Notes under the pieces: model-generated | Seen by the model: the letters and a program-made list of their open reading frames with translations, nothing else | Told to the model about the DNA's origin: nothing | Database searches by the model: none | UHGV virus genome: UHGV-1578121 | From: a virus | Strand: one strand, 5' to 3' | DNA length: 16,995 nucleotides | Part shown: positions 1 to 15,752 of the stretch, piece after piece | Layout of the letters: every line of letters begins with the position of its first letter | How positions within the stretch are numbered: position 1 is the first letter of the stretch | Program-made: the position numbers and the translations under genes

Positions 1-113
1 GCGGCGAAATGGCTCACGATATGGCGCATGTAATCAGCATGGTTGATGTTCAGTAGTGCGAACTTATCCGCCGTGTCGATGTACCGGACGGCAGGTTTGA
101 GGATGTCAGGCAT
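1..113 (-). CDS. partial CDS (N-terminus only, continues past window start); hypothetical protein
   Basis: ATG at 113 on minus strand, reads MPDILKPAVRYIDTADKFALLNINHADYMRHIVSHFAA and stays open to the window edge; start overlaps the stop of the upstream gene by 8 nt (operon-style coupling). Confidence 0.35.
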   Translation of the reverse strand, partial: MPDILKPAVRYIDTADKFALLNINHADYMRHIVSHFA

Positions 114-843
114 GTTCACGTTCTCCCAGGCGACGGGCCAGCCAGCGTTGGGCTAATTCGGTGAGACGTTCTTTACGTTCTGGCGTTGGCATATCCATAT
201 CCAGTAGCGCACAGTTACGGCTTTCCAGATACGCGAGCAACGCCAGTTGATCAGCGGTTATATGGTCACGAACTTTTTTTGATGGGATGCCGTTTTTTTT
301 GGCCCATACAGGCGGGTGCATCCCTAATACAAGGCGCGCAATGAAAGTACATTCGTTGTTATAAGCATGACCGTGTTGAGTGTCTCCAGTACGCTCTATG
401 TATCCCTTCATGGCATCCCCCATAGAGCGCATCTCAGCTTTGGCCTCACATCTCTCTGCTATCCAGTTAGCCATGCGGTTAAACTGCGCAATGTATGCCT
501 CTTTGAATGCAGCCGCTTTTTTTCCGGTAAATCCCATTGTTAAAAACACGAAGCCGTCTTTGGTGACTTCGTAGGCTCTCAATACGCGCCCCTTATGCTC
601 AAATTTAACCCGCCGAAAATTGCGGGTTAAAAATTCAGCAGAACAACACAGGTTTTCAATCCGGTTAACAACCTTATCGTGATCCTTTCTGAAAAATCGG
701 GCGATAGCCTGTGAAGTGGTTACAGGCTCACCGCCAGAAGGAAACACTTCCGGCGCAGTGAGTGCATTTTTATTTATTCCGTCAGCAATAATCTCATTGC
801 CGGAAATTACCGAAATAATTGCGGCGAAATCATAATTACGCAT
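106..843 (-). CDS. phage regulatory protein, Rha-like N-terminal domain (245 aa)
   Basis: Provided ORF; N-terminal segment VTTSQAIARFFRKDHDKVVNRIENL...GRVLRAYEVTKDGFVFLTMGFTGKKAAAFKEAYIAQFNRM matches the recalled Rha-domain pattern; overlaps upstream gene by 8 nt. Confidence 0.5.
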   Translation of the reverse strand: MRNYDFAAIISVISGNEIIADGINKNALTAPEVFPSGGEPVTTSQAIARFFRKDHDKVVNRIENLCCSAEFLTRNFRRVKFEHKGRVLRAYEVTKDGFVFLTMGFTGKKAAAFKEAYIAQFNRMANWIAERCEAKAEMRSMGDAMKGYIERTGDTQHGHAYNNECTFIARLVLGMHPPVWAKKNGIPSKKVRDHITADQLALLAYLESRNCALLDMDMPTPERKERLTELAQRWLARRLGEREHA

Positions 844-1351
844 GATTCACCCCCAGAGACGGCGCTGACGTCATCAGGCTGGCGAACGTCTCCATGCGGC
901 GAGCAACTTCCCGCACCGCTTCGGTCGGTGTCATGCCGTTCTGTATCGCCTCGTTAAAAGCCGATATCCCGATTTCTTGTACAACTGACAACAAATGAAA
1001 GCGGTGTTTTGTTTCGTCCTGCTTGAGGTGGCGCATATGTTCTGGGTTACGACCGCGAACAATGCGTAACAAGTAATCATGTTGCATTTCATTCAGCATA
1101 TAGCGCATTTCTGGGCGACCGCGCTTATGGCCTGATTTCAGACTATAGCGAGGCAATGCTCCCAGATCGCGTAACTGCTGCTGATGTTTTTTGATCGTCG
1201 CGCAAAGACTTTCGTGTTGTATTCCTGCTCGCTCAGAAATAACGCGGGAATCAATACGCGACTCTGCTTTGTGGCGAATCAATATATCGTTCTGGTTGAT
1301 TTCAGGCTGAACGAAGCCCTGCCCCTGTACGGGCATATTCGGACGTTTCAT
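836..1351 (-). CDS. hypothetical phage regulatory protein (171 aa), possibly Rha/antirepressor-related
   Basis: Provided ORF in the same operon as alpA and the Rha-like gene; basic protein with an RVISERAGIQHESL...GRPEMRYMLNEMQ segment loosely resembling the Rha pattern. Confidence 0.4.
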   Translation of the reverse strand: MKRPNMPVQGQGFVQPEINQNDILIRHKAESRIDSRVISERAGIQHESLCATIKKHQQQLRDLGALPRYSLKSGHKRGRPEMRYMLNEMQHDYLLRIVRGRNPEHMRHLKQDETKHRFHLLSVVQEIGISAFNEAIQNGMTPTEAVREVARRMETFASLMTSAPSLGVNHA

Positions 1352-1415
1352 TGAAAACTCCTGCTATCGGATCAGGTTTAGTGCTGGGGGAGAATATCCC
1401 CCTCCCAAAAGATTA

Positions 1416-1619
1416 TTACGCGGCGTTGTTGCGAGAAGCATCAATACGCTGGTTAATCCATTCGTCGACTTCACTTTCAATAAAAGCCACGGAGCGGGGA
1501 CCAATTTTTACCGGTTTAGGGAAGCGCCCCAGGCTGATCAGGCGATAAATCCATGCGCGACCGTAACCAGTACGGCGCATAACCTCAGAAAGACGGATGA
1601 ATGAATTGTTATTAGCCAT
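1416..1619 (-). CDS. alpA: AlpA-family phage transcriptional regulator / excisionase-like HTH protein (67 aa)
   Basis: Translation MANNNSFIRLSEVMRRTGYGRAWIYRLISLGRFPKPVKIGPRSVAFIESEVDEWINQR shows the hallmark IRL..V...TG......IY.......FP.P...G.RSV.W.E.EVDEWI pattern of AlpA/CP4-57 regulators; sits downstream of a P4-type integrase. Confidence 0.8.
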   Translation of the reverse strand: MANNNSFIRLSEVMRRTGYGRAWIYRLISLGRFPKPVKIGPRSVAFIESEVDEWINQRIDASRNNAA

Positions 1620-1707
1620 TTATCAATCTCCTTAATGTTGACGCGGAAATCCCCTCCTGTGGCTTAGCAAGAGTTTTATTTGCGTCAAATTACGAACACG
1701 ACAAAAA

Positions 1708-1731
1708 CCACAACATGAAAACATGTTGTGG
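1708..1731. promoter_or_regulatory. perfect palindrome CCACAACATG-AAAA-CATGTTGTGG, candidate operator upstream of alpA
   Basis: 10-bp perfect inverted arms with 4-bp spacer read directly from the sequence, about 90 bp upstream of the alpA start on the minus strand. Confidence 0.4.
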
Positions 1732-2261
1732 TATTGCATAAGATAAATTCAGATTGTTTGGTTGGTATGCTCCAGCAAGGTAGAGCTATTCCCGCTTTCG
1801 GCGGGGTCACACGATTAGGCGTGACGTCCAGTAGTTTTAAAGAGCGCTTTTTCAGTACATGGTGGACGGACAAGAGAGCAATTGCGCTTTGTCAGCGCCG
1901 TAGATTCATATTTGAATCGTTGTATGTTTCCCGATAGCAAATCTATCGGTCACTGCGGGACGAACCATCCCGCCGCATCAATGTTAAAGATCAACAGCAC
2001 TTTGCCAGCGCTCCACCGCCTCATGGATGAATCATTACATGCTTTGTAATAGTGCATGTATCACCATTCTTTCCTGCATCAGGAAAGCACTAAAGGCTGT
2101 TAAAGAGCATCCAGCTTTTCAGCTGCGTAGAAAACTCAATCTTCGTTGTTACAAAGAGCGCCCATACATGACGGATAACTGCGTGAAAAACCCTCTGTAA
2201 GGATGTTAGCTGTAGCTTTCCGTGTACGTTAGCATACATCTGTATACTTGTCCAGTCGTTT

Positions 2262-3476
2262 TTATGCACATACACTAAACTTGCCGTGCACCACGTTTCC
2301 GCCCTGTTCCAGTGAGTCCATATAGTCGGCGTACCACTGGAGCATCTCCCGCCGTCCGTCCAGATATTGCGCGTGATTGTATGTGCCACGGATCGAGTTT
2401 TTATCGACGTGCGCCAGCTGCGTTTCTATCCACGCGGAGTTATAACCCTGCTCATGCAAAATTGTACTCATGGTATGCCGGAACCCATGACCAGTAACGC
2501 GCCCAGCATAGCCAATACGACGAATAAGCACGTTCATCGCCATTTCACTCATCGGTTTACTGTGCTGTATTCGACCAGGGAAAATAAACGGATACTGCCC
2601 CGTCATGTGTTTCAGTTGTTCCAGAATAGCAATCGCCTGTTCTGAAAGCGGCACGCAATGAGGACGGCGCATTTTCATTCGTTCTTTCGGCACTTCCCAC
2701 AGACGATTATCAAAATCAATCTCCTGCCACTCTGCCTGCCGCAATTCACCCGGACGGAGTCCTGTAAGAATCAACAATCGCATACCCAGCTTGACGATCT
2801 GGCTTCCGGTGTACGTATTAAAAACGCGGAAAAATTCCGGTAGCTCATCAACTTTCAGATACGCGTAATGCTCTTTTTTGTGTGGTGCAAATGCGCTTGC
2901 CAGATCAGGAGCGGGGTTATATTCAGCGCGTCCGGTAATTATTGCGTACCGAAACACTTCGCCACATCGCTGGCGAACCTTACGCAATTTTTCAGTTGCG
3001 CCACGGTCATTAAGACGGGATAGAACCGCGAGCAATTCCATCGGCTTAATCTCTGCGATGGGCCTACCTCCAATGTACGGAAAAACGTCTTTTTCAAACG
3101 TCTCTATCATTTCCTCTGCATATGAGGGAGACCATCGGTCCAGGCGTTTTTCATACCACTCACGGGCGATCACCTCAAAGGTGTTACCGCATTTGTTCGC
3201 CTGTTCTCGCTTTTGGGCCTTTCTGACCTCACTCGGATTAACTCCACCAGCGATAAGCCTTTTGGCTTCATCCCTTGCCGTCCTGGCATCAGAAAGGGAC
3301 ACCTCAGGATAGACACCCAGCGACAACATTTTGGGCTTGCCTGCAAACCTGTATCGCAATCGCCAGCCCTTCGAACCGTTCGGCTCAATGAGTAACGAAA
3401 GCCCGTTGCCGTCATTGAGTGTATAGGCTTTCTCTTTTGGCTTCGCGCGGCGGATAGCAAGGTCTGAAAGCAACAT
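2262..3476 (-). CDS. int: P4-type tyrosine integrase (site-specific recombinase)
   Basis: Translation begins MLLSDLAIRRAKPKEKAYTLNDGNGLSLLIEPNGSKGWRLRYRFAGKPK (classic P4-integrase N-terminus) and ends with catalytic motifs HGFRHT...LAHVDKNSIRGTYNHAQY; start placed at the internal ATG 3476 (GGGGG upstream) rather than ORF-track 3515, which has no RBS. Confidence 0.9.
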   Translation of the reverse strand: MLLSDLAIRRAKPKEKAYTLNDGNGLSLLIEPNGSKGWRLRYRFAGKPKMLSLGVYPEVSLSDARTARDEAKRLIAGGVNPSEVRKAQKREQANKCGNTFEVIAREWYEKRLDRWSPSYAEEMIETFEKDVFPYIGGRPIAEIKPMELLAVLSRLNDRGATEKLRKVRQRCGEVFRYAIITGRAEYNPAPDLASAFAPHKKEHYAYLKVDELPEFFRVFNTYTGSQIVKLGMRLLILTGLRPGELRQAEWQEIDFDNRLWEVPKERMKMRRPHCVPLSEQAIAILEQLKHMTGQYPFIFPGRIQHSKPMSEMAMNVLIRRIGYAGRVTGHGFRHTMSTILHEQGYNSAWIETQLAHVDKNSIRGTYNHAQYLDGRREMLQWYADYMDSLEQGGNVVHGKFSVCA

Positions 3477-3533
3477 GTGTATAGCCCCCAAAAAACGATT
3501 TTGTCCTATACGCATTACTATACACTTCTGTGT

Positions 3534-3632
3534 GTAGATTTAGGTAGATGACTGTAGACGGTTGTAGACGAGGAAAAACGCTGGAGGCCTTGATATTCGG
3601 GGGATTGGTAGACTTTAGTAGACGTTGGTAGA
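3534..3632. repeat. array of seven direct GTAGA(C/T) repeats phased at 10 bp (3534, 3544, 3554, 3564 and 3608, 3618, 3628); candidate integrase arm-type or accessory-protein binding sites
   Basis: Read directly: tGTAGAttta gGTAGAtgac tGTAGAcggt tGTAGAcgag ... gGTAGActtt aGTAGAcgtt gGTAGAtgtt; lies between the integrase start and the tRNA-like core. Confidence 0.6.
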
Positions 3633-3640
3633 TGTTTGTT

Positions 3641-3662
3641 TGGAGCGGGCGAAGGGAATCGA
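3641..3662 (-). other. 22-nt partial tRNA 3' end (T-loop to CCA), tRNA-Gly-like; att core/junction direct repeat
   Basis: Reverse complement of 3641-3662 is TCGATTCCCTTCGCCCGCTCCA = T-loop remnant + T-stem 3' strand + acceptor 3' strand + discriminator + CCA; sequence further 5' does not continue as a tRNA. Assignment to tRNA-Gly(CCC) is from memory and unverified. Confidence 0.55.
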
Positions 3663-3747
3663 GGAAACCCATAATAACCTGCTGTAAAATAAAGATTTTG
3701 TGATCAATCATAGGTAACTGATTACGTGATAATAGAGGATCATTATC

Positions 3748-4968
3748 GTGTCGATCAAGAGCCAAGCATACTTATTTAAAAGAAAAGATGGGATCTGGAT
3801 GTTTCAGATTTTTGTTCCTAAATACTTACGTCATCTTTACCCTTATAAGTTGTGGAGAAAAAGCACATCTACACGAGATCTGAATGAGGCGAGAAGATTC
3901 AGAAACCATCTATTATTAGAATGGGAGGAACTAAAGCGGAAACATAATCCTGATAACCCCGAAAGGAGGTTACAACAAGCTATTGAATCCTTACATTCAG
4001 AGGCAAGGGCCAATAAAAACACGCAAAGAGCCGTAAAACGCGGTTATGCACCGCCTTCCCTGTGCCTAATACGTGACGAATACGCCGAATGCTACAGAGA
4101 GCGTCGTTCATACTCAACACTACAGAAATCAGCAAGGGCCGTTGAGCTATTTTTACAAAGCATTCAGAAAGATGATATTCATATTGAGAAAATAGGCAGA
4201 CGGCTTGTAACAGTATTCTTAGATGACCAGAAGCAACGAGGAGCAGCCGATCAATCTCGTCAAAACTGGCTTACATGCTTAGGATCGCTCTATGAATTTG
4301 CTAAACGCCGTTATGACGGAATACCAGACAGTAACCCTTTTCACGGTCATAACCTCGAAGCACGTCGCACAATCGAGAGTTATCAACCGTTTACACCTGA
4401 ACAAATGCAAAAGCTACTTGATGCAGCGGAGCCGGAGATCAGAAATATTATCTTAATGGGCTTGTTTTCAGGGGCCAGATTAGACGAACTGGCAAGCCTG
4501 AAAAAGTCAGAGATTGTAACTGTGGAAGGAATACGCTGTTTTTATATCAGCAAGAGTAAGACTAAGGCAGGGATCAGACACGTTCCGATACATTCGAGAC
4601 TATCGATTATTGTCGATGAATATTTAAATCATAATTATGGTGAATATTTGTTCCCTCATTCAAATAAAGTAAAAAGAACCGACGGTAAGAAAGGCCCGTT
4701 CTATTCTCAAGCGTTCTCACGTTTACGTCGTAGCGTCTTGCCAATCGCTACAAATAGACAATGCTTTCACAGCTTGCGCGGGATGTTTATCACTTGTCTT
4801 GATCGTGCAGGAGTGCCTGAACAGCGGATCGGAGCCATTACCGGACATACAGAGCAGATAGCTAAAACAGAAGCCTTTCGCACCTACTCACAAGGGGCAA
4901 GCATTCCAGAATTAGCTGAATATGTAGAATTAGTAAAATATGAATTAAATATTGATTTTAAGGCGTAA
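3748..4968 (+). CDS. tyrosine recombinase / phage-type integrase (406 aa), second integrase, divergent from the P4-type one
   Basis: GTG start with AGAGGA upstream; C-terminal catalytic region contains HSLRGMFIT (H-x-x-R) and GHTEQIAKTEAFRTYSQ (His and Tyr); visibly more AT-rich codon usage than the left integrase. Confidence 0.8.
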   Translation: MSIKSQAYLFKRKDGIWMFQIFVPKYLRHLYPYKLWRKSTSTRDLNEARRFRNHLLLEWEELKRKHNPDNPERRLQQAIESLHSEARANKNTQRAVKRGYAPPSLCLIRDEYAECYRERRSYSTLQKSARAVELFLQSIQKDDIHIEKIGRRLVTVFLDDQKQRGAADQSRQNWLTCLGSLYEFAKRRYDGIPDSNPFHGHNLEARRTIESYQPFTPEQMQKLLDAAEPEIRNIILMGLFSGARLDELASLKKSEIVTVEGIRCFYISKSKTKAGIRHVPIHSRLSIIVDEYLNHNYGEYLFPHSNKVKRTDGKKGPFYSQAFSRLRRSVLPIATNRQCFHSLRGMFITCLDRAGVPEQRIGAITGHTEQIAKTEAFRTYSQGASIPELAEYVELVKYELNIDFKA

Positions 4969-4988
4969 AACAACGCCATAAACGTAAT

Positions 4989-5020
4989 AAAAAGGCTTCC
5001 TTGTAATGGGAGCCTCTTAT
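4989..5020. terminator. bidirectional intrinsic terminator between convergent genes
   Basis: aaaaaGGCTTCCttgtaatGGGAGCCtcttatat: imperfect GC stem flanked by an A-run on one side and a T-rich run on the other; sits between the stop of the plus-strand integrase (4968) and the stop of the minus-strand 613-aa gene (5076). Confidence 0.5.
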
Positions 5021-5075
5021 ATGCTTAATTCCTTACAAGAGTGTTTTAGATTGTGATTAAATATTCTCTTTATCA

Positions 5076-6917
5076 TTAACTTGGTGCTTGCCCAGACAGA
5101 GCCGCCAACGTGAAACTACGTTCAAAATCTTGTTGGATACTTCCCACTTTGTAATCGAGGTATGATCCAAGCTGACTACCATCAGGGGCGATATTCACAT
5201 CCACCTTGCTTTCCGGCACGTTTACGACGATGTTCGGTGCATACGTCATAGATGGGGTAGTGTTCAGATCACGGCTAACGTTCTGTTTCAAGGATTGCAC
5301 GTTATCGGATGGGCTGGAATAGTTCTGAATTGCAGTGCCGCCAGTTGTTGGCTTGTCTTCCGTGCCAGGGATAGGTGATAAGCCTAAAGCACTACGACCC
5401 CAATCAACCATACCCCCTACAAACGAGTCCTTATAATACATACCGGACGAATCCAATTGCTCGTGCTTATTCTCTGGATTGATTTTTTGATATGCAGCAG
5501 TGATCCACGATACAGCACCAGCAAAGGCGCTCATCATTTCAGCCGTTGAGCTTCCAAGTTCTCTAAACAGAGGATTGAGATCTTTCAGCATTTGCGCCCA
5601 CTCTTCACCAGCTTTCGCGTCGAATTCTTCACCGAATCCCGTCATGATAGCTTTCTTACTACCTTCCCAGGCCATATTCATATTGGCTTGCACTGCCTGG
5701 AGACGTTCAGCAGCGTCCAGATCCGCTTGTGTATAGGTGGCATTGGCTTTTTGCATCTTAACGATGGTTTTGTTTAGCTCTTCACCGTTACGACTGAAAG
5801 CACCACGGAAATATTGTAAATCATTTCCAAGATCTTCAAGAATATGACCTATTTCCTGATCAGAGAGTCCACGGCGTTCTCCTTCTTTCACTACAGCGCC
5901 CAGGAAACCTAATGGATCAGTCTGGAAACCTTTAACCTGTTCAGGACTCCAACCATATTTATTAAGGATGTTATCAACGGCACCGTTACCGCCAGCCCAG
6001 CGACCTTTTTTAGCGTCCCATTTGGTATTCCCTACGGATTCACCTAAACGCTCTTGAACGTCTTTAAGGTTATCTTGACGTTGAGAGACGGAACTATCAA
6101 CACCGTGTTCTAAGCCGTACTGGTTGAGTGCTAACAGGGCGTTAGTGTTGACGTTTACAGCCTTTGCCTTGCGGTTAGTGTCTGTGATCTTGCTTGCCTG
6201 ATCGGTTACGGTATTGAATATCGCAGCACCGCCGAGAGTAGCAGCAGTGAGAGCAGCACCGCCCGCCATTGCACCTACACTACCGCCCATATGACCGCCT
6301 TTAAGCTGTTTAGCCATATGTGGATACTTGCCACCATCAGCCGCCACCTGGCGAGCTTTTACAGCAGCCGCACGGCGTTCTAACGTGATACGATCACGGA
6401 TCAGGTGATTCATCTTAGCCTGACTAATAACGCCTTTCTCATACGCTGCCGTTTGTGCTTTGATGTACTGTAATGTTTTGTAGTATTGGGCGGAGTCCAT
6501 ACCGTCACCCATACGCCCCTTCTTGATGCCTTCAAGCTGTCTAAAAGCTTGCTGGCGTTTAATCTCTGCTTTCTCTGCTATCGTTGCTTTAGCGCGGATC
6601 TGTTTATCGGCAGCTATCGCGGCTTTAGCCTTCGCTTTAGCTTCTGCCTTTGCCACCTTATCAGCATTCTTCTTATCTGTTTGAGCTTGCTTGTCTGACG
6701 CTTTAGCATCAGCTTTAGCCTGTGCAGCTTTACGGGCCTTTACCAGATCGTTAGCATCGTCTATAGCTCGTTTAGCCTTCTTCCCTTTCAATGTTGGATT
6801 GGTTAGGTTTTCCATTTCTTTCTGAAATTTCTTACCTGCATCGCGTGCTTTCTGTAATGATGCAAAATCAACTTTAAAAACGACGCGGTTCGTTAAGGTT
6901 GAGATGTTCAACTCCAT
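5076..6917 (-). CDS. large Lys/Ala-rich coiled-coil protein with a Gly-rich hydrophobic segment; tape-measure-like / virion structural protein (613 aa)
   Basis: AAGGAAAA RBS before ATG 6917; N-terminal KAxAKA-type low-complexity coiled coil, then GGHMGGSVGAMAGGAALTAATLGGAAIF glycine-rich hydrophobic stretch as seen in tail tape-measure proteins; function inferred from composition only. Confidence 0.4.
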   Translation of the reverse strand: MELNISTLTNRVVFKVDFASLQKARDAGKKFQKEMENLTNPTLKGKKAKRAIDDANDLVKARKAAQAKADAKASDKQAQTDKKNADKVAKAEAKAKAKAAIAADKQIRAKATIAEKAEIKRQQAFRQLEGIKKGRMGDGMDSAQYYKTLQYIKAQTAAYEKGVISQAKMNHLIRDRITLERRAAAVKARQVAADGGKYPHMAKQLKGGHMGGSVGAMAGGAALTAATLGGAAIFNTVTDQASKITDTNRKAKAVNVNTNALLALNQYGLEHGVDSSVSQRQDNLKDVQERLGESVGNTKWDAKKGRWAGGNGAVDNILNKYGWSPEQVKGFQTDPLGFLGAVVKEGERRGLSDQEIGHILEDLGNDLQYFRGAFSRNGEELNKTIVKMQKANATYTQADLDAAERLQAVQANMNMAWEGSKKAIMTGFGEEFDAKAGEEWAQMLKDLNPLFRELGSSTAEMMSAFAGAVSWITAAYQKINPENKHEQLDSSGMYYKDSFVGGMVDWGRSALGLSPIPGTEDKPTTGGTAIQNYSSPSDNVQSLKQNVSRDLNTTPSMTYAPNIVVNVPESKVDVNIAPDGSQLGSYLDYKVGSIQQDFERSFTLAALSGQAPS

Positions 6918-6935
6918 AATATTTTCCTTTATCTC

Positions 6936-7151
6936 TTATTTATTCTGTTTTAATACGTAATATTGCACTGCTTCCATAGCGGAGCAGCCCGTAGCAAAAA
7001 TTCTTTGACGTACAGCGGTATTGCTGATCCCTAAAAACTTACATACTTGTGAGATATTTAGAATATCTTCCGGTAAGGTGGAAACAGCTTTCAAGATTTC
7101 AACTGGATTGTTATTTTGTGTGTTCATGGTTTTCTCACTTTTATTCGACAT
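6936..7151 (-). CDS. small HTH DNA-binding protein (71 aa; possibly starts at internal Met, ATG 7127)
   Basis: Contains ISQVCKFLGISNTAVRQRI, a typical helix-turn-helix of excisionase/AlpA-like small regulators; no clear SD at either candidate start. Confidence 0.45.
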   Translation of the reverse strand: MSNKSEKTMNTQNNNPVEILKAVSTLPEDILNISQVCKFLGISNTAVRQRIFATGCSAMEAVQYYVLKQNK

Positions 7152-7265
7152 TAGAAAACAAAAAGGGCAAAGAGATCAGAGCATATTTTGCGTATATGGT
7201 TAATCCCTTCGCCCTTATTGCCTGTTTTATTTCCAGTCGCACAGGAAACGACTATTAACGCTTTA

Positions 7266-8294
7266 TTACGATACAGTGATCTGTACGGTGAAGCCTACGC
7301 CGTGGTTTACAACCATCTGGCTATTCTCGGTAACTACGTTTACAGCGTCGTTACGTGCTGGGCTAAATGCATAGCTGTAATATTCAGCCGCGCCAGAATT
7401 CAGCAGGTCGAACGTTGAAGACGGAGCGCCGTAGATGTTCTGGTAAACGTTAGAGCCTTTAGCGAACTTCGGAACAGCAACCGCATCAGAAGTCATATGA
7501 GCCAGCAGCAGCGGATCGGTGACTTTGATGATATCAATGTTAGTGCCTGGAATAGTGAAGGTAGTCACACCTGGCAGCAGGGAGCGCACGCTATAAACGA
7601 TGTTTGCGTCATCGGTAGGGCTTGCATACTGGAACGCGTTAACCATGCCAGCACTATAACGGATAGCGTTGAAAGCGGCAGGTTTACAGAATACTACGAT
7701 ACGTTCTACAGCCGCTGCCTGACTTTGGGCCTTAGTGATAACGTCTGTATGCAATTGATCGAATTGCTGGAACACCGTAGAAGGTGTGGTGCTTGATGCG
7801 TCGATGGTTGCAGTCAGAGGAACAGCACTAAACAGATCGCCCCACTGGATCAGCACATCATCAGTTTTAGGGGTGTAAGTTTTACCACTGAACAAGGAAG
7901 CGGCTAATATGCTTTCTTTAGTACGCTGGAAAGCGATGTGATGCTTAGCAACATATTCCGCGTAGATATCTGTCAGAGTTTCTTCAACGGTAGCGCCTGG
8001 CTTACGTTTGCCTTGTACGTCTTGCGGTTTAATCACATCTTCACGCAGGAAGTAAGGGATTTCTACCAGCCATTCTTTACCCTGTTCACGCTTAGTTACG
8101 TTGTGTTCAGAAGAGAAACGAGAGGTTTCTTTGTTGAACAGAGATTCGTTAGTTTCTACCAGTTGGCTAACAGCCACTTTATGAGAACTCACGCCTACTG
8201 GATCAGTAAAGTCGAGAGAAGTTAACAGGAAGTTACGAGAGTCATGCAGACTAAACAGCGGAGCCAGATCGACGGATTCATTACCAATAATCAT
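7266..8294 (-). CDS. major capsid protein, lambda gpE-like (342 aa)
   Basis: AAGGAA RBS; length 342 aa vs 341 for lambda E; collinear local resemblances recalled against lambda E (APLFSLHDS vs DPLFLRLFF; ERIVVFCKPAAF vs VNIIVFDPKGWALF); immediately preceded by a ~120-aa gene in the D position. Confidence 0.55.
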   Translation of the reverse strand: MIIGNESVDLAPLFSLHDSRNFLLTSLDFTDPVGVSSHKVAVSQLVETNESLFNKETSRFSSEHNVTKREQGKEWLVEIPYFLREDVIKPQDVQGKRKPGATVEETLTDIYAEYVAKHHIAFQRTKESILAASLFSGKTYTPKTDDVLIQWGDLFSAVPLTATIDASSTTPSTVFQQFDQLHTDVITKAQSQAAAVERIVVFCKPAAFNAIRYSAGMVNAFQYASPTDDANIVYSVRSLLPGVTTFTIPGTNIDIIKVTDPLLLAHMTSDAVAVPKFAKGSNVYQNIYGAPSSTFDLLNSGAAEYYSYAFSPARNDAVNVVTENSQMVVNHGVGFTVQITVS

Positions 8295-8312
8295 TATGTT
8301 TATTCCTTTATA

Positions 8313-8684
8313 TTAAGATGTGAATACAGTGTTAAAACCAGCCATTTGGAAGCCTTTAGCAGCCAGAGCAGCAATAGCGGCTTCTTTAATAGCGCCTTCA
8401 ACATTCAGAGCATCAGACTTGATGCAAACCAGTCCGGCATTGCTACGCAGCACGTTAACGGTTTTAGCGTCGCCAGCGGATACCGCATCAGACACAACCA
8501 TAAGAACATCGCCGCCGCTTACATATTCAGCGCCGTCACTGGTAATCAGATCGCCGCATTCAACATCAACCGCCAGATCAACGGTAAAAGATTGCACACA
8601 ACCGAACTCATCAGTTGCATATGAAACGATATCGGTAAATGATTTGCGAACTGGAAACAGATCGCTCATATTAATAATAGCCAT
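8313..8684 (-). CDS. putative head decoration protein, gpD-like (123 aa)
   Basis: AAGGAAAC RBS; size and position directly upstream of the E-like capsid gene mimic the lambda D-E pair; Ala/Gly/Val-rich; no confident motif match. Confidence 0.4.
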   Translation of the reverse strand: MAIINMSDLFPVRKSFTDIVSYATDEFGCVQSFTVDLAVDVECGDLITSDGAEYVSGGDVLMVVSDAVSAGDAKTVNVLRSNAGLVCIKSDALNVEGAIKEAAIAALAAKGFQMAGFNTVFTS

Positions 8685-8686
8685 AA

Positions 8687-8902
8687 TTAATAGTTTCCTT
8701 TTTTGGATTGTTTGATTTGTTCTGCTTTTGCTTTAATCAGATCCTGCATAGTAGGTTTCTGTTCATCAGCAGACTTAAAAAGCTTATCACAATGTTTTTT
8801 CAATTCTGTTGGAGTGATCCCCAACATATAAGCCGTAGCATTGAATGTTTCATCAGTGATAATCAATTCTTCGTTACCATTCTTTAGAATTAGATTTTGC
8901 AT
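8687..8902 (-). CDS. hypothetical small protein (71 aa from internal ATG; ORF-track version 8687..8929)
   Basis: Stop overlaps the D-like start region (4-nt spacing); the second ATG has a weak AAAGG upstream, the first has none. Confidence 0.45.
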   Translation of the reverse strand: MQNLILKNGNEELIITDETFNATAYMLGITPTELKKHCDKLFKSADEQKPTMQDLIKAKAEQIKQSKKGNY

Positions 8903-8950
8903 TGTTGCTTTACCTTTTATTCCTAACATTCTTGTTTAGTGCTGATAAAA

Positions 8951-8980
8951 TAAAACCGGAAGGGAAAAGCTTCCGGCTTT
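8951..8980 (-). terminator. rho-independent terminator (minus-strand orientation favoured)
   Basis: Perfect 7-bp stem CCGGAAG/CTTCCGG with 7-nt loop; on the minus strand the stem is followed by TTTTATTTTAT; located immediately upstream of the capsid gene block. Confidence 0.6.
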
Positions 8981-9783
8981 ATGAATACAACATTGAAGGA
9001 TGTTATAGAGTAGTGTTACTAAATCGCAGTTATATGCACTTAAAGAGGTAGGACATATAAGAATAAGATTTCTTATTGTTATAAGCCCTTGAGGGGTGAA
9101 TAACAGGCTTACAGAGGAGTAGGCGCTTAGGAGGTCGCCCCCTTGGAAAGGAATCATTGTAAACCTGTTATTCGTGCGATGGCTAATCGCTGTCTTTCTC
9201 AATGTGGATGCATCGATCAGACTATTCAGGAATCACCTATTAACTTTCAAACCTTTTGGATTCTCATTTTAATAGGAGGCGGTGCCGAGATGATTTCGGG
9301 GATCATCCACGCTTTCGCGTTCTAAGATTGACACCTTAATAAACACCAACAAAAACATATTCAGCTCATTGTTGTCAAGAAACAATATACACCGTTATTT
9401 GTTTATACGGGGTTTATAGAACACTGAAAAACAGTGCTTTTAGAAAGTGTTTCGTGTTTCATGCTTCATAGTTGATTAAAAGATGAGGGGCCAAGTCCAT
9501 AGCCCCTGCATTCTCAAATACACAATATGATAAAGCAATAAAGAATAAGGAAAATAAAATGAAACTATTTTTTAAGAGGAAACAATTTCTAAAAATCACT
9601 GTAAATGGAAAGCGAGGTAGGTTAGATAGGGCGCAACCCCTTGAGGTCTACCCCGCTTTCATGTAGATTAGAATAGGGAGAAGAATTAACACCAGCTAAC
9701 TCCAATTTCCATTCAATACTCTTCATTTATTATTCTAACAGATTTGTCAGTAGAAGTCAATATTTAAATCAATAAAAATTAAT

Positions 9784-9876
9784 TTATTTTTCGTTTGTTA
9801 ATTCCCACTTACCGAACATGCAGTTGCCATCTAAAACAATAGTTTGTTCGTTACCGTTATCATCGGTTACGTGCAT
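9784..9876 (-). CDS. hypothetical small protein (30 aa), translationally coupled
   Basis: ATG overlaps the stop of the upstream 38-aa ORF (TGATG); reads MHVTDDNGNEQTIVLDGNCMFGKWELTNEK; below the ORF-track size cut-off, found by manual translation. Confidence 0.3.
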   Translation of the reverse strand: MHVTDDNGNEQTIVLDGNCMFGKWELTNEK

Positions 9877-9992
9877 CAGGCGGCCTGAGTGTCGAGCTTA
9901 CCAGTGTAGATCTTGCCTACTGTGAAACAATGGCACGATATGCCTTCTTCTGTAAGTGCCAGTAAACGGGCACGTTTGGTTTTTACTGTCAT
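9876..9992 (-). CDS. hypothetical small protein (38 aa), translationally coupled
   Basis: ATG overlaps the stop of the upstream 102-aa ORF (ATGA); reads MTVKTKRARLLALTEEGISCHCFTVGKIYTGKLDTQAA; found by manual translation. Confidence 0.3.
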   Translation of the reverse strand: MTVKTKRARLLALTEEGISCHCFTVGKIYTGKLDTQAA

Positions 9993-10297
9993 TGGTTAAC
10001 CTTATCGATTAGTTCTGCTATGAGTGGTTGAAGATCAGCTACCGCTTGTTGCATGATTTCAGTGGTGTCATTGATCACGATAATCAGGTTACTCAGATCA
10101 TCAGCTTCAACCTGTGCACCTTCGGATTGTTCGCACGCTGCAATAAGTAGTTGCAATGCTTCCCGCGTCGATTCCAGATTAATAACCGCCTGTGTGATGG
10201 TCAGTTCGCTTGGATATTCCATCGCTGCGTTAACTGCTTTCTGCAAGTCAATAACAAGGTCCATCATTTGGATAGTTACGTTGTGTACTTCGCTCAT
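9989..10297 (-). CDS. hypothetical highly acidic alpha-helical protein (102 aa)
   Basis: Provided ORF; strongly acidic composition (many D/E, few K/R); start overlaps stop of the upstream 70-aa ORF by 1 nt. Confidence 0.55.
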   Translation of the reverse strand: MSEVHNVTIQMMDLVIDLQKAVNAAMEYPSELTITQAVINLESTREALQLLIAACEQSEGAQVEADDLSNLIIVINDTTEIMQQAVADLQPLIAELIDKVNQ

Positions 10298-10509
10298 TAT
10301 GCCGCTTCCTCTAATTGTTGTTGTGCTTCACGAGCTTTAGTCAATGCAATCTGTAGCGGTATTCTGTAAGTTGCAATGCTGTCTACAACGTCATCCAGAG
10401 TTGCCAGATCGTTCTCTTCCTTTGCACGTTCAATAATATTTATAAAACATTCTGAAAGAAGCTTAAGATCATGAAAAGTGGTTGTCTCTAAAATTACTTT
10501 GTTAATCAT
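10297..10509 (-). CDS. hypothetical acidic helical protein (70 aa)
   Basis: Provided ORF; coupled to the downstream 102-aa ORF; ends with QQQLEEAA helical tail. Confidence 0.5.
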   Translation of the reverse strand: MINKVILETTTFHDLKLLSECFINIIERAKEENDLATLDDVVDSIATYRIPLQIALTKAREAQQQLEEAA

Positions 10510-10550
10510 TTTATTTTCCTTTTGTTAAGGGTTATATTCAGCCAACGCTG

Positions 10551-10931
10551 TTAATCGTCTATTTTTATTCTTTCAAGCATAAGTAACTCTGTCTCTCTTG
10601 CGCCTGCATACTGCAAACTATTAAGAGCCATGTAGCCACGAAAATGATTCATATCCTGGAAGCCTAAACACTGCCACCTTTTAAGAAGGCTGCTATCAAT
10701 GATTGTTGTTTTGCGTGGGCGTGGATTGAAGTAAACACCATCCATACTTTGAATGATTGATAATTCTTCGTCTGTCAATTCTGGGCTTGGTTCTTCAAGT
10801 ATAAAGATCAATTCCTCGCCTGGTTGTGCATCATGCTCATAATTATATTTGCGAGGATTGTTTAACGCATACTGATCACATGCTTCGCCAATAGCCATTA
10901 TTACGTTTTTCTTGCTTTTTTGCTTGCTCAT
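10551..10931 (-). CDS. hypothetical protein (126 aa)
   Basis: Provided ORF with strong AGGGGA RBS about 7 nt upstream of the ATG; no recognisable motif. Confidence 0.55.
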   Translation of the reverse strand: MSKQKSKKNVIMAIGEACDQYALNNPRKYNYEHDAQPGEELIFILEEPSPELTDEELSIIQSMDGVYFNPRPRKTTIIDSSLLKRWQCLGFQDMNHFRGYMALNSLQYAGARETELLMLERIKIDD

Positions 10932-11043
10932 TGCTTCCCCTTCGTTTTGGTTTTCTTGTTGCAGTGTTAAAAAAGGAAGCGATCATGAATACTAAGAAAA
11001 ATATTAAGCTTTCCATTGTTTCACCCTTCAAGATGTTTGATAG

Positions 11044-11064
11044 TTGTTTGTTGTTTGTTGTTTG
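11044..11064. repeat. tandem heptamer repeat (TTGTTTG)x3 in an intergenic gap
   Basis: Read directly: ttgtttg ttgtttg ttgtttg tttt between the 72-aa and 126-aa minus-strand genes. Confidence 0.6.
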
Positions 11065-11066
11065 TT

Positions 11067-11285
11067 TTAAGCTACAGAGTCGATTCTGAATGCTTTCATA
11101 TGAGTTTTTGTATACTGCAATAATCCTTGTTTACTTAGGTTATCGAGAAGAGCATATAAAAATTGCACACCTACCACACCGGAAAACTCAGAATCAAACA
11201 GAATCATTCCCGTTCTTTCCCGTAAATATTGCAGAAAGATTTCTTGTGAAAATTCGCCATCGAATATGATCACAGTGTCACCCAC
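11067..11285 (-). CDS. hypothetical protein (72 aa); GTG start with no RBS, may be the C-terminal part of a frameshifted gene together with 11270..11527
   Basis: Provided ORF; first codon is GTG with an in-frame stop immediately upstream; overlaps the 85-aa ORF by 16 nt in another frame. Confidence 0.35.
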   Translation of the reverse strand: MGDTVIIFDGEFSQEIFLQYLRERTGMILFDSEFSGVVGVQFLYALLDNLSKQGLLQYTKTHMKAFRIDSVA

Positions 11286-11527
11286 AATTCAAACGGGCTT
11301 ATCTCAAGCAGTCTGAACGTTTGATTATTCACAGCTTCATACTGAATTACCCCAAAATGGCTTAGGTGATTTAGCCAATGCTGCGTGTGTTCTTTACTGT
11401 GCGGTAACTCCTGAAAGCTGATAATCGCGGGTAGCTCATAATTGCTATCAGCAAGCTGTTTTGCCAGTGTGTAGCCGCTTTCTGTAATTTCGAATGTTCG
11501 TTTGTTTAATGTCAGGTTGTATTTCAT
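11270..11527 (-). CDS. hypothetical protein (85 aa); possibly the N-terminal part of a frameshifted/fused gene
   Basis: Provided ORF, tightly packed after the 221-aa gene; 3' end overlaps the next ORF. Confidence 0.45.
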   Translation of the reverse strand: MKYNLTLNKRTFEITESGYTLAKQLADSNYELPAIISFQELPHSKEHTQHWLNHLSHFGVIQYEAVNNQTFRLLEISPFELWVTL

Positions 11528-11539
11528 TTTTTATTCTCC

Positions 11540-12205
11540 TTAAAATGGTATTGAGTCATAGATTTCACTTTCTTTTCTCAGGGCTATCATCAGTGCATTA
11601 AAAGCATCATCTTCAAGAATTATCCTCTTCGAGGTCAGTGCACGTTTTATAAAATTTTCTGTTTCTTCTTGCATAGGCTTTTGGCTGTCTATGGAAATAA
11701 GCCATGTAAAAAGATCAGATTGTTCCGTGATTTCTGCCTGTGTTTCCTGCTCAATAGAGTGTGTCGCTTCTAACGGTTCCTGTGTTTCAGGTGCAGGCTG
11801 TTCTACGTTTACAGAGGTTTTTACGTCTTCCGGTGGTGTGATGTGTGCATCTGTAAAGGGTAATGCTTTATAGAGTGATGTTTGCCCGTCCCGTGCCTCT
11901 ACAGAAAGAACACCCATATCAATAAACATATTTATAATATTACGCACCTGACGATCACTAACCATTCCAATATTAGCTAATGTTTTTTGATTGGCGTAAC
12001 ATTCTTGCCCTTGTTCATTGAACCCAGCTACGTAACTGTAGATTTCAACGGCTGGAAGTGTCGCGGTGTATTCCTTACCTGACGGTGAGAACCACTTTTT
12101 AAACATCTTCAGCCATTGTTCAACTACTACATATGTTTGTTTACTATCTTTCTTATTGAGGCATTGCGCTTTTGCTTCGGCAATTGTTTTGGTGTTTTGG
12201 TTCAT
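11540..12205 (-). CDS. putative replication-initiator-like / winged-HTH DNA-binding protein with acidic C-terminal half (221 aa)
   Basis: Strong AAGGAGG RBS; N-terminal region YSYVAGFNEQGQECYANQKTLANIGMVSDRQVRNIINMFIDMGVL resembles the N-terminal DNA-binding domain of lambda-O-type replisome organisers (recalled pattern); C-terminal part E/Q/T-rich. Confidence 0.45.
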   Translation of the reverse strand: MNQNTKTIAEAKAQCLNKKDSKQTYVVVEQWLKMFKKWFSPSGKEYTATLPAVEIYSYVAGFNEQGQECYANQKTLANIGMVSDRQVRNIINMFIDMGVLSVEARDGQTSLYKALPFTDAHITPPEDVKTSVNVEQPAPETQEPLEATHSIEQETQAEITEQSDLFTWLISIDSQKPMQEETENFIKRALTSKRIILEDDAFNALMIALRKESEIYDSIPF

Positions 12206-12329
12206 TTAGTTCCTCCTTTGTAAGGACTGTAATTAGTAATTCATTAACAAGTTTTGGAATTGATTTCCCTTCTGCCTTTGCACGATTTAACAACGCGTTA
12301 TAAGTTGCAGAATCAAAATTAATATTCAT
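12153..12329 (-). CDS. putative ribbon-helix-helix-like small regulator (58 aa), overlaps start of the 221-aa gene
   Basis: Manual translation MNINFDSATYNALLNRAKAEGKSIPKLVNELLITVLTKEE: beta-strand then helix pattern typical of RHH/CopG-like proteins; strong AAGGAG RBS; 53-nt out-of-frame overlap with the next gene lowers confidence. Confidence 0.35.
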   Translation of the reverse strand: MNINFDSATYNALLNRAKAEGKSIPKLVNELLITVLTKEELNEPKHQNNCRSKSAMPQ

Positions 12330-12352
12330 TTGGCTTTCTCCTTCTCCTGTTA

Positions 12353-12535
12353 TTATTCTTTCTCTACTTCTGCCTTACGCAGTTCATCAATAATTTTTAG
12401 TGCATCGTCAAAGCATTTTTCACGCTCTGGATAACCACAGCGCCGCGCTGTGTTCCTGTTCATCCTTACTTGATGTCGTGTTAGCTCACCTTTTTTAAAT
12501 GCCTCTACGACGTGTTCCGGTGTATACCATTTCAT
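12353..12535 (-). CDS. hypothetical small basic protein (60 aa), first gene of the leftward early operon
   Basis: Provided ORF with strong AAGGAG RBS 6 nt upstream; directly downstream of the long non-coding region. Confidence 0.5.
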   Translation of the reverse strand: MKWYTPEHVVEAFKKGELTRHQVRMNRNTARRCGYPEREKCFDDALKIIDELRKAEVEKE

Positions 12536-13404
12536 AAAAACTCCTTATTTAGATAAAAGAAAAACACACCTTGCAGCCTAACGGCTCAAAGTGCAGTGTT
12601 CTGTGATTTGATTATTTAGATGGAGAGAGATGTTTCTCCCCTCCCTACTTACAATACTACATAACGGCGGCTTTGTCAACCCTCTTTTATAAAAAATTTG
12701 ATCATTTTCAATTTCTTATAATTTTTCTTAGCTTTTTGTGCTGCCTACTCTGGTACAATTCTTCCCTGTTGTCTAAAACGCTCTCAATCGCACTCTGACG
12801 GGGTTTTGATAAAAATAATACATTCCCTTATGTAGAGGTTGTTTATCTCGTCAGAGGCTTATTTAAGGGGCTTATTTTTGATTTATCAGATGATGGAAAG
12901 ATGGTGGATAGATAAACTCTGATTTCAGACATCTTATAAAATACCTGCAAAGTTCTCAGAAGCTCTGTAACGAGCTAATCTATTACCGCTAAGGTGTTTC
13001 CCTTACATTACCCTGTTTAGCTCGCCTACGGCTTGATTTAAGCGGTAGAATCTTATTTAACCTTCAACTACAAAAACCATTCTTTCTTTTTTGTTGTTGG
13101 TTGTTTTGTCATGTTATGCGTTAGCATCCCCAAAGGGTAACGCGACACTAACAACCATTCGCTTACGCTCAGGTTATTGCACAAGTAAATTTCAATCGTT
13201 AGATGGTAGTTAGTTAATTATCGTTCTGCGCACAGCGCAAGACTATTAGCCATACGCAAGTCGTAGGCTATTTGCACATAGTAGATTACATATTCGTTGT
13301 GAGCGGAAAGCGAACATAGATCAGCTAACTACTAACAAAAAACAAAAAACAAAAACTATCTGTTATGACAAGCATCAGTCTAACTTGTGCAAGGTTCTGG
13401 CGAA

Positions 13405-13473
13405 TGCCAATAGATTAAGGGATAGTCGAAGACTCCCTAACGGGTATCCCTATAATTATTCTTTAAAAGATAA
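13405..13473. repeat. copy 1 of a ~70-bp direct repeat containing a nested hairpin (AGGGATA...TATCCCT) and a TATAAT hexamer
   Basis: tgccaatagattaagggatagtcgaagactccctaacgggtatccctataattattctttaaaagataa read directly; near-identical copy at 13588-13657. Confidence 0.7.
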
Positions 13474-13518
13474 AAGAATTTATAAAAGATAGTTTAATTG
13501 TAGTTTAATTATAGTATT

Positions 13519-13571
13519 GTAGGAACTCATTTCCTGGGTAGGTAGGAACTCATTTCCTGGGTAGGTAGGAA
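13519..13571. repeat. 23-bp tandem repeat x2.3 (gtaggaactcatttcctgggtag), each unit with internal palindrome AGGAA-ctcat-TTCCT
   Basis: Read directly; lies between the two copies of the 70-bp direct repeat. Confidence 0.7.
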
Positions 13572-13587
13572 ACCCGCACTATACGAT

Positions 13588-13657
13588 TGCCAATAGATTA
13601 AGGGATAGTCGAAGACTCCCCTAACGGGTATCCCTATAATTATTCTTTAAAAGATAA
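13588..13657. repeat. copy 2 of the ~70-bp direct repeat (one extra C relative to copy 1)
   Basis: tgccaatagattaagggatagtcgaagactcccctaacgggtatccctataattattctttaaaagataa read directly. Confidence 0.7.
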
Positions 13658-14334
13658 TTATAGTTAGTTGTTAGTTTTATTATTAGTATTATTAAAGTAA
13701 TCTTATTGTCAGTCATCGTGACCGACACCCCCCCACACAACATCTGTGCAATGATCTTCTAAAAGTGTTTCTTGCTATCAAAAATTAAAAAAACAGGCTT
13801 AAATTCAAGATTAATTGATGATTAATCCCTATGTAATTCCATACTAAAAATTCAATGAAAAGTAGATTCAAAGTGCAATTCTTACTTTCTTCACTTTTAC
13901 ATTATCATCAGCAAAGCCTTATGTAATGCGGCATATAGCGTATCACTGCAAAATTGTTGCTCAATAAACGTTCTACCATTTGTTGAACGAATGTTCACTC
14001 GTGCACATCTCAAAGAGAATAATTATTTATCATACAATTCCATAATAAGAATTATTATCACTTATAATGCAATACAACCCAGATTCGATACACTTTAGCA
14101 AAGTGTATTCTGTAACCTACTGATCTTTATATACTCAGGCATATATAGACCATTTATCGCTATTTATTGGCTTTTTTTCATCTGCCGAAAATAAATTTCT
14201 TGACAAGACAGATCATTTGTGAGCGGCTTGCATAAAATAAATTTACTTATAAATCAACAAGATATTTCATATTTGTGCCTGCATCAGATCGGGAGGCTTG
14301 ATCTTTGTGTTCAACGATGGTGACGGACGCACCT

Positions 14335-14420
14335 AAATTAAATCGGTTTTAATCGCCTTTAATACCTTTTAATCAGTCTTAATCACCTTTTAATAGCCCT
14401 TTAATCATTTTTGATCATTT
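14335..14420. promoter_or_regulatory. array of eight TTTTAATC-like repeats phased at 10-11 bp (helical repeat): candidate curved DNA / iteron / protein-binding array upstream of the short recombinase gene
   Basis: aatcggtttt aatcgccttt aatacctttt aatcagtctt aatcaccttt taatagccct ttaatcattt ttgatcattt read directly with near-constant 10-bp period. Confidence 0.6.
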
Positions 14421-14517
14421 AGTGCTCTCAACCATAAAACGTATCGTGCAACATATTGAAAATGATCATTTTATGATCAAAACTACTTTCATTGAAACGA
14501 ATAAGGAGAGTATAAAG

Positions 14518-15096
14518 ATGAAAGGTATTAGCCAAGCCCTCAAGAATGTAGACGAGGTAAAAACAGTAGCAGCAGAGCTACAGCGCAATAGTAAAACCAA
14601 CCTGTTTTATTGCTTATGGGTGTTTATGTATGAAAGCGGGTTGCGTGTCTCTGACGTACTCAAGCTAAAATATCAGGATGTTGAGGGGCAATCTCATTTG
14701 AAGATAAAGCAGGAGAAAACCGGAAACGTAGTAAGGCCAAAAGTTACCCCCGCCATGTTGTCAGTGGTGGCACAACGCAAGGCAGAGCAAACGAAGATGC
14801 CTGTAGCTACAGATTTTATTTTCAGTGCTGGCACATTACGCAGTAAAGGCGAAGCCGTAACCCGTAACACGGTATTCACTGAATTTGGGAAGATGGGACG
14901 TAGAGCCGGATTCTCTAATGTGGGATGCCATACGCCACGTAAAAGTCGGGGCCGTGTGATGTTTGATGCAGGGGTAGCTATAGAGACAATAGCCCATTTC
15001 CTGGGACAGACAGATCCGCGCTCTACTATGTATTACATCGGGTATGGTCAGGATGTGCAGGACGATTTAGCAGAGGAGTTTTCTTTAGAATGGTGA
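14518..15096 (+). CDS. short tyrosine recombinase, catalytic domain only, FimB/FimE-like (192 aa)
   Basis: Start moved to ATG 14518, which has AAGGAG 8 nt upstream (ORF-track start 14422 has none); motifs LFYCLWVFMYESGLRVSDVLKLKYQDV (box I Arg), CHTPRKSRGR (H-x-x-R) and LGQTDPRSTMYY (catalytic Tyr); size typical of invertase-type recombinases. Confidence 0.75.
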   Translation: MKGISQALKNVDEVKTVAAELQRNSKTNLFYCLWVFMYESGLRVSDVLKLKYQDVEGQSHLKIKQEKTGNVVRPKVTPAMLSVVAQRKAEQTKMPVATDFIFSAGTLRSKGEAVTRNTVFTEFGKMGRRAGFSNVGCHTPRKSRGRVMFDAGVAIETIAHFLGQTDPRSTMYYIGYGQDVQDDLAEEFSLEW

Positions 15097-15305
15097 TCCA
15101 AATTAAAAGCTTATTTGTGCTGACGTTGGCGCTATTGCCTGTCCTATCGAATGCCGGACAGATAACAATGGTCAACCCACAGGAAGAACAGACGGAGAAT
15201 GGAAAAACGCTGTGCACGTATCAGAACAGCAATTATCTGTTCACTTACGTAACTAAGGGGAAATGCCCTTATGCAAAAACATTTGACACTTCCGCCAAAG
15301 AATAA
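15090..15305 (+). CDS. small secreted protein (71 aa precursor) with predicted signal peptide and two Cys in the mature part
   Basis: N-terminus MVIQIKSLFVLTLALLPVLSNA followed by GQ looks like a Sec signal peptide with AxA-type cleavage site; ATG overlaps the recombinase stop (ATGGTGA), suggesting coupling. Confidence 0.45.
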   Translation: MVIQIKSLFVLTLALLPVLSNAGQITMVNPQEEQTENGKTLCTYQNSNYLFTYVTKGKCPYAKTFDTSAKE

Positions 15306-15310
15306 CGATT

Positions 15311-15730
15311 TTAACGGGATTTTGGATAAATGCTGTTTCTGCAATTAATGCAATACCAACTCGCGGAGTATTGACCAACGGCACGCGAAAAAACCATGTG
15401 TGTTTGCACCTTATCAACTTCAAAGCATTTGGGACAGTAGGCTGTTTCATCGCCTTCTTTCCAGTAAAGTCCATCTTTGAAAGTGAAGGTGTGCTTATCC
15501 TTTAGCTGCTCTTCAAGCTGCTTATTTTTCTGTTCAGCCTCAAAAAGAAGTGCTTGGGTTGTGATTACTTCCATCTTCACACTTGCAAGTTCGCTCATGA
15601 GGTTAGCAAGCTCAAGTTTAAGCGTTGCTTTATCAAGTTCGCCGCCATCATCAGCGAGCTTCTTTGCAATACCTACAGCTTTGTCAATGATACCTACAGC
15701 CGCCGCTGTACTTGCCAACACTCCAGACAT
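15311..15730 (-). CDS. hypothetical coiled-coil protein with C-terminal CxxC...CxxC zinc-ribbon-like motif (139 aa)
   Basis: Provided ORF; RBS TTAGGGGCAAT-ATG; C-terminus CPKCFEVDKVQTHMVFSRAVGQYSASWYCINC; N-terminal half predicted helical. Confidence 0.55.
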   Translation of the reverse strand: MSGVLASTAAAVGIIDKAVGIAKKLADDGGELDKATLKLELANLMSELASVKMEVITTQALLFEAEQKNKQLEEQLKDKHTFTFKDGLYWKEGDETAYCPKCFEVDKVQTHMVFSRAVGQYSASWYCINCRNSIYPKSR

Positions 15731-15752
15731 ATTGCCCCTAATTTTAACAAGT

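Follow-up and report, generated by a model that had tools for sequence, protein, structure and literature searches.

The 22-bp sequence at positions 3641-3662 of the virus genome UHGV-1578121 is very probably the attachment site in the middle of a tandem at the E. coli tRNA-Gly(CCC) gene glyU, formed by two integrative elements independent of each other and here called A and B. The window referred to below is the whole stretch of DNA that was analysed, 16,995 nucleotides in length. From the sequence alone it had been proposed that two different elements were inserted side by side at one tRNA target; indeed, A alone, B alone, the tandem and the empty site all occur. The features around the junction are as follows.

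1-3640 (minus strand): tRNA-proximal 3.6 kb of element A, with Rha-like genes, AlpA and the integrase; the remainder of A lies past the left edge
1416-1619 (minus strand): AlpA-family regulator of A (Pfam Phage_AlpA, E 2.4e-20), at the same position in genomes with A alone
2262-3476 (minus strand): Int A, 404 aa, P4 family (Pfam Arm-DNA-bind_3, Phage_int_M and Phage_integrase)
3533-3633 (plus strand): candidate arm-type Int A-binding repeats, seven (K/A)GTAGAY, between the int gene and the core
3641-3662 (minus strand): att core, 22 bp, equal to the 3' end of the glyU tRNA-Gly(CCC); in other genomes it also marks the boundaries of A alone, of B alone and of the tandem
3663-16995 (minus strand): element B, 13.3 of ~13.8 kb, its ends fixed by comparison with strain MJ-T
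3663-3747 (plus strand): integrase-proximal arm of B, holding ATAGGTAACTG at 3710-3720
3748-4968 (plus strand): Int B, 406 aa, GTG start, a DUF6538-type tyrosine recombinase (DUF6538 and Phage_integrase domains)

The core and the two elements that meet at it

On the minus strand, positions 3641-3662 read TCGATTCCCTTCGCCCGCTCCA and match the 3' end of glyU, an annotated tRNA-Gly(CCC) gene, at 22 of 22 positions (GCGGGCGTAGTTCAATGGTAGAACGAGAGCTTCCCAAGCTCTATACGAGGGTTCGATTCCCTTCGCCCGCTCCA). The name glyU is that of the matching gene in K-12, and the 22-mer also ends annotated tRNA-Gly genes in several E. coli chromosomes. It begins with six of the seven bases of the T loop, continues with the 3' strands of both the T stem and the acceptor stem, and ends with the discriminator base and CCA. 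The sequence-only reading had seen here a T-arm, an acceptor stem and CCA cut off from the rest of a tRNA-Gly. The partial 3' end, its match to a host tRNA and the tRNA-Gly identity, with anticodon CCC, were all borne out, but the T-arm is incomplete, as it consists of the loop and the 3' strand only. By the Islander definition, displaced tDNA reproduces the 3' part of a host tRNA gene exactly or almost exactly, and the core is such a copy, an exact one.

The 22-mer is present as a single copy in the window with up to three mismatches permitted, and a script found no second copy there at up to six substitutions, so that both elements are incomplete here. A match to the 22-mer arose in none of 200 dinucleotide-preserving shuffles, and a chance resemblance to a tRNA is ruled out by the exact, unique 22-mer. 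Neither ARAGORN nor Rfam at gathering thresholds found a tRNA in the window, and Rfam found no other RNA family either; the 22-mer is therefore a fragment. No promoter or terminator signal above the shuffle expectation was found in 3400-3850. The second copy of the core for which a search had been suggested exists in relatives, at the ends of the elements, but not in the window, and the distal copy of A is imperfect (20/22).

The intact tRNA-Gly gene lies on the same strand as the fragment and ~13.8 kb away from it in the strains MJ-T, 08-00022 and FORC_042, a distance that places it beyond the window edge. It had been expected past the right edge, within tens of kb. In MJ-T, whose element B stands alone at glyU and is 99.9% identical to positions 3640-16995, it begins just 481 nt beyond the equivalent of the window end, far nearer than was allowed for.

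The minus-strand P4-type integrase with its start at 3476 was correctly recognized. Int A carries the arm-binding (Arm-DNA-bind_3/DUF4102), central and catalytic domains of the P4 family (Pfam E-values of 1e-25, 6e-34 and 9e-27) and is homologous to P4 Int over its full length (BLASTP, 38% identity, E 2e-96). The element on this side, positions 1-3640, shows 97-98.5% identity to the ~13.9-kb island that stands alone in S1-KEN-03-A. The plus-strand gene starting at 3748 likewise proved to be a different tyrosine recombinase, Int B, with the R, K, HxxR, H and Y motifs visible in its translation. Int A and Int B share 22% identity over the catalytic domain (E 0.002), and to judge from this comparison they are unrelated beyond their common fold. 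The right side is also more AT-rich, as had been noticed, with a G+C content of ~0.38-0.45 against ~0.49 on the left.

Between the int gene of A and the core, the seven (K/A)GTAGAY repeats start at 3533, 3543, 3553 and 3563 and at 3607, 3617 and 3627, forming two groups in exact 10-bp phase. KGTAGAY has 13 exact matches in the 17-kb window, six of which fall in the 101 nt of 3533-3633, all on one strand. All seven repeats are identical to those of genomes with A alone. They are likely to be the arm-type sites of Int A, because the annotated attP of P4 shows the same order of int gene, repeats and core. The AlpA-family gene at 1416-1619 is probably the excision factor of A. The motif CTATACAC (GTGTATAG on the other strand) occurs in three copies just upstream of the Int A start codon (3477-3525) and in two copies near the distal end of A (L026, about 13900-14000); it may be a further protein-binding site of the attP arms of A.

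The arm of B is less marked. Its 11-mer ATAGGTAACTG has a second copy across the core, at the tRNA-proximal end of B in MJ-T, and two copies are weak evidence. At the same end of B, just outside the window (L004, 16790-16829), there is a hairpin GAGAAGAC-A7-GTCTTCTC, read on the tRNA strand. B supplies it ~15 nt downstream of the CCA end of the rebuilt glyU, and it may replace the native downstream terminator or processing signal of the tRNA.

The annotated genes in relatives of A include a primase/helicase (DUF927 or D5_N/Pox_D5), Icd-like, Rha and AlpA genes. Of the genes that mark a P4-like satellite (sid, psu, delta, epsilon and alpha), sid, psu and delta are absent from the annotations of these relatives. 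This is a statement about annotation only, and most of A lies outside the window; we therefore do not count A among the P4-like satellites.

Occupation of the glyU site in other genomes

We compared positions 3300-4000 by megablast with 5426 complete E. coli genomes. The matches split exactly at 3640-3662. The left part (up to 3662) adjoins an intact tRNA-Gly in many of these genomes, and the right part (from 3640) is present in others without the left part. The site was found in the following states.

K-12: empty site, where the ETT2 flank meets the core that belongs to glyU
MJ-T and FORC_042: B alone (~13.8 kb), between a core beside the flank and the core inside glyU
S1-KEN-03-A: A alone (~13.9 kb), between an imperfect core (20/22, 18 contiguous) beside the flank and the core inside glyU
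08-00022: tandem in the order of the window, where the flank is followed by a degenerate core, A, a core, B and the core inside glyU
Window: end of A, core, end of B; the flanking bases are identical to those in these genomes

In all of them the break points lie exactly at the core, and every state predicted for a tandem occurs in nature. The two members are thus found independently at the same site, which is also found empty, and each brings an integrase and a tDNA fragment of its own. Of the three cores, the distal one is known only from relatives: the full array is read from them, since both the intact tRNA and the distal core of A lie outside the window.

Along the tRNA strand, which is the minus strand of the window, the order would be glyU (~0.5 kb past the right edge), B, the core from 3662 to 3641, and A; beyond A, past the left edge, the degenerate core and then the ETT2/GH15 chromosomal flank would follow. 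In the proposed mechanism the attP of each element would carry a copy of the tRNA 3' end, so that integration by the element's own tyrosine integrase would rebuild the tRNA and leave a displaced core at the far end. The second element would then have entered one of the two cores. The middle core would accordingly be a hybrid att site made of the tRNA-proximal end of A and the tRNA-distal end of B. Because the int gene lies just inside each element beside the shared core, at the tRNA-distal end in B and at the tRNA-proximal end in A, the two integrase genes abut it and diverge. The order in which A and B arrived cannot be read from the sequence, as either scenario would end in one and the same arrangement and both stacking orders are found in nature. 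We infer that the integrases are active and that the repeats are their arm sites. Recombination of 3641-3662 with the distal core, by Int A with the help of AlpA and the phased GTAGA repeats, would excise A, and recombination of 3641-3662 with the core inside glyU would excise B, so that each of them should be able to leave alone.

The order of the window was found in one of the 5426 complete genomes, that of 08-00022, whose A variant is 92% identical. The reverse order (glyU, A-like element, core, B-like element, core, flank) is present in six, for example in ETEC4077 (L040). Among 17 further contigs with the core/B junction, the core is joined to the chromosomal flank in 15 and to other elements in two (L016 and L010). 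The latter are metagenome contigs, whose partner integrases of 535 aa (with DUF4145 and Rha genes) and 647 aa (DUF6538) are encoded next to the core and divergently from Int B. On account of the reverse order and these two other partners of B, at least four integrase lineages appear to use the 22-bp glyU site.

Int A and Int B occur widely as exact proteins, in 155 and 266 collection blocks, respectively. Each adjoins glyU in 25 of 25 contigs examined, and all 50 contigs carry the element singly. The exact 40-nt A/core/B junction had no match in the GTDB representative genomes or in the JGI metagenomes, and the exact pair of the window was not found elsewhere in these two sets or in the 50 contigs. 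Such rarity of pair and order makes the tandem a rare secondary event at a busy site.

The array could instead be a fossil, with one or both elements unable to excise and the 22-mer left as an inert scar. Decay of this kind does happen. In the copy of A in 08-00022 the proximal GTAGA repeats are mutated and the distal core has lost a single nucleotide at two places (L001, 20300-20342 and 6405-6424), which suggests that this copy is decaying in place, and circular forms were not found either, as the predicted attP circle junctions of A and of B had no match in IMG/VR. However, in the window both integrase reading frames are of full length with their catalytic motifs, AlpA is intact, and the seven phased repeats have remained identical to those of A alone. 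Moreover, both elements are ~98-100% identical in many unrelated strains, in which they occur alone, in either order or not at all, and near-identity across such varied states points to recent mobility. We therefore consider an inert array rather unlikely.

The absence of the exact A/core/B pair from all other records searched would also be expected if the window were an assembly chimera, in which contigs or strains with A/core/tRNA and flank/core/B had been joined through the shared 22-23 bp. This is very improbable, since the same architecture exists in the finished genome of 08-00022 and the reverse order in six more. Furthermore, the final contigs of common assemblers are built with k-mers longer than 22-23 bp, so that a repeat of this length falls below them. 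Slightly less probable still is that A and B, adjacent and sharing a core, make up one composite element, which would move as a whole with its two integrases and keep the internal 22-mer as a relic. Each half is found by itself at glyU, bounded precisely by the core, and also in the opposite order and with other partners, and the two co-occur in only 1 + 6 of the 5426 genomes. Finally, an episomal or phage genome with the 22-mer as attP core beside its own integrase, which the P4-like int-attP layout could suggest, can be practically dismissed, because the two sides of the core are different elements that occur separately in chromosomes at glyU, plasmid placements number 0 of 266 (query 3300-4000) and 3 of 1527 (query 3640-16995), and the phage collection shares just ~430 nt of similarity with B.

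Gene content of element B

Element B is almost complete in the window. Its layout is compact and conserved: integrase, tape-measure homologue, a small ORF, capsid, small ORFs, an HTH gene, an ORF-free stretch, a short recombinase and a few ORFs. The recognizable genes after the integrase are the following.

5076-6917: tape-measure homologue, 613 aa, nearly full-length match to the tape-measure protein of Phapecoctavirus anhysbys (30% identity, E 4e-58)
7266-8294: capsid gene, HK97-type (Pfam Phage_cap_E, E 3e-12)
11540-12205: HTH_36 gene, initiator-like, with weak similarity to replication initiators
14422-15096: short tyrosine recombinase, catalytic domain only (192-224 aa, about the size of FimB/FimE)

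The capsid protein is 25-26% identical over its full length to major head proteins of the Stephanstirmvirinae, and five of the 20 ORFs of B have homologues in this group. Capsid and tape-measure both find their best resemblance (25-30% identity) in proteins of virulent phi92/phAPEC8-like myoviruses of ~150 kb. No gene for a portal, terminase, protease, head-tail connector, sheath, tube or lysis protein was detected in the 13.3 kb of B, and apart from capsid and tape-measure none of its ORFs of at least 53 aa had a structural match in Pfam or PHROGs. With ~13.8 kb and this gene content, B does not qualify as a complete temperate prophage, which would have terminase, portal, tail and lysis genes, or as a cf-PICI, which would combine its capsid with portal, protease, connectors and small terminase. 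The 123-aa ORF upstream of the capsid gene was considered as a Phapecoctavirus decoration protein and rejected, as it shows no similarity.

Positions 11850-12343 cover part of the HTH_36 gene and a small ORF upstream of it (12171-12329). Their DNA is 91-95% identical to that of accessory genes in the virulent Justusliebigvirus phages muut, inny, Mt1B1_P17 and PaulScherrer; the counterparts are muut_154 (two HTH_36 domains and a T5orf172-type domain) and bas60_0101 of PaulScherrer. Identity this high points to recent gene exchange between the B island and these phages. A 71-aa ORF of B also has a homologue in muut. The tRNA-Gly of muut, examined as a possible relative of the core, is unrelated to it.

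Capsid and tape-measure modules of the B type are present in ~60 of the 5426 complete E. coli genomes at an identity of at least 90% and in ~270 more at ~75%, so that the family including its distant relatives occupies roughly 6% of complete E. coli genomes. Among the relatives of B (L004, L002, L039 and L040 were considered), some carry a baseplate gene; one B-type copy stands at a non-tRNA site near paoD.

The stretch 12536-14421 has no ORF longer than 41 aa over 1.9 kb and a G+C content of ~35%. It contains a 75-nt direct repeat (13401-13473 and 13584-13657, 184 nt apart) and a perfect 23-nt tandem repeat (13519-13571). The blocks 12381-12914 and 13825-14014 are 75-88% conserved where the capsid genes of the relatives are only ~72-75% identical. 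An Rfam scan of 8800-14600 with E-values up to 1 gave no match. This stretch is possibly an origin or control region of B; in 08-00022 a helicase module stands in place of 11495-13832. Directly before the short recombinase gene (14347-14420) there are about six 10-nt repeats TTTAATCRCC. The short recombinase could serve in dimer resolution, inversion or integration. A further ~1 kb (8930-9988, G+C 0.35-0.39) has no annotated gene in RefSeq relatives; its sole ORF, mechanically called at 8936-9202 (88 aa), has no family matches.

From this gene content we venture a tentative proposal, which is possible but on the whole doubtful: B and its relatives may be an undescribed family of E. coli satellites that exploits virulent ~150-kb phi92/phAPEC8-like myoviruses (Stephanstirmvirinae), bringing its own capsid and tape-measure, borrowing the rest of the virion and using the 1.9-kb stretch as origin or control region. 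Dependence on such a helper is hypothetical. Our literature search for satellites at glyU, or for any that use Stephanstirmvirinae, phi92 or phAPEC8, yielded no relevant work. If the proposal were true, the junction would show a satellite-like island, A, stacked on a new kind of satellite, B. Phages like phi92 and phAPEC8 are used in phage-therapy collections, and a new satellite family of this sort could affect phage efficacy and gene transfer.

Comparison with known systems

The nearest counterparts of B are the cf-PICIs and other satellites. De Sousa et al. (2023) are reportedly the source of the SatelliteFinder classes P4-like, PICI, cf-PICI and PLE. B resembles such satellites in being ~14 kb long and bounded by an integrase, in having its own HK97-type capsid and a replication/regulation module, and in its presence in many E. 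coli genomes. In contrast to cf-PICIs, B has no detected portal, protease, connector or small terminase gene, but it has a full-length tape-measure homologue and, in some relatives, a baseplate protein.

For element A the closest system is P4. Int A is a full-length homologue of P4 Int; the int gene, the arm repeats (candidate ones in A) and the core follow in the same order and at similar distances (about 150-165 nt), the annotated P4 attP then continuing with arm repeats again beyond the core. Both also possess a small regulator of the AlpA/Vis type. They differ in the target, which is a tRNA-Leu gene for P4 and glyU for A, in the repeat type (ATGCCCCC in P4, GTAGA in A) and in the P4 satellite genes sid, psu and delta, none of which is annotated in the relatives of A.

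The locus itself has been reported as an island hotspot adjoining ETT2 (PMC2808357; bioRxiv 10.1101/860726). The array lies at this same chromosomal locus, and its outermost core is flanked by the terminal gene of ETT2, GH15 (glucoamylase-like). ETT2, however, is an old and largely fixed island, whereas A and B, which lie between it and glyU, are variably present.

Tandem arrays at tRNA genes form a documented class. A tyrosine integrase that acts at a tRNA 3' end restores the core on both sides, and a second element may enter either copy (PMC7192596). Islander, which asks for one integrase and one tDNA fragment per member, counted 125 tandems in a total of 3919 islands (PMC4383910). The window offers a clean example, with two unrelated integrases at one 22-bp glyU target, and together with its relatives it illustrates both stacking orders in nature. 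It also allows both islands to be delimited correctly in annotation, the exact ends of B being fixed. As in the arrays of Islander and TIGER (PMC4383910, PMC7192596), every member comes with an integrase and a displaced tDNA fragment of its own, integration restores the core on either side, the fragment is, to judge from relatives, oriented as the tRNA, and the crossover belongs to the T-loop/T-stem class. There is no essential difference between those arrays and the window, which adds a particular pair at glyU. We conclude that the junction is an ordinary instance of this class.
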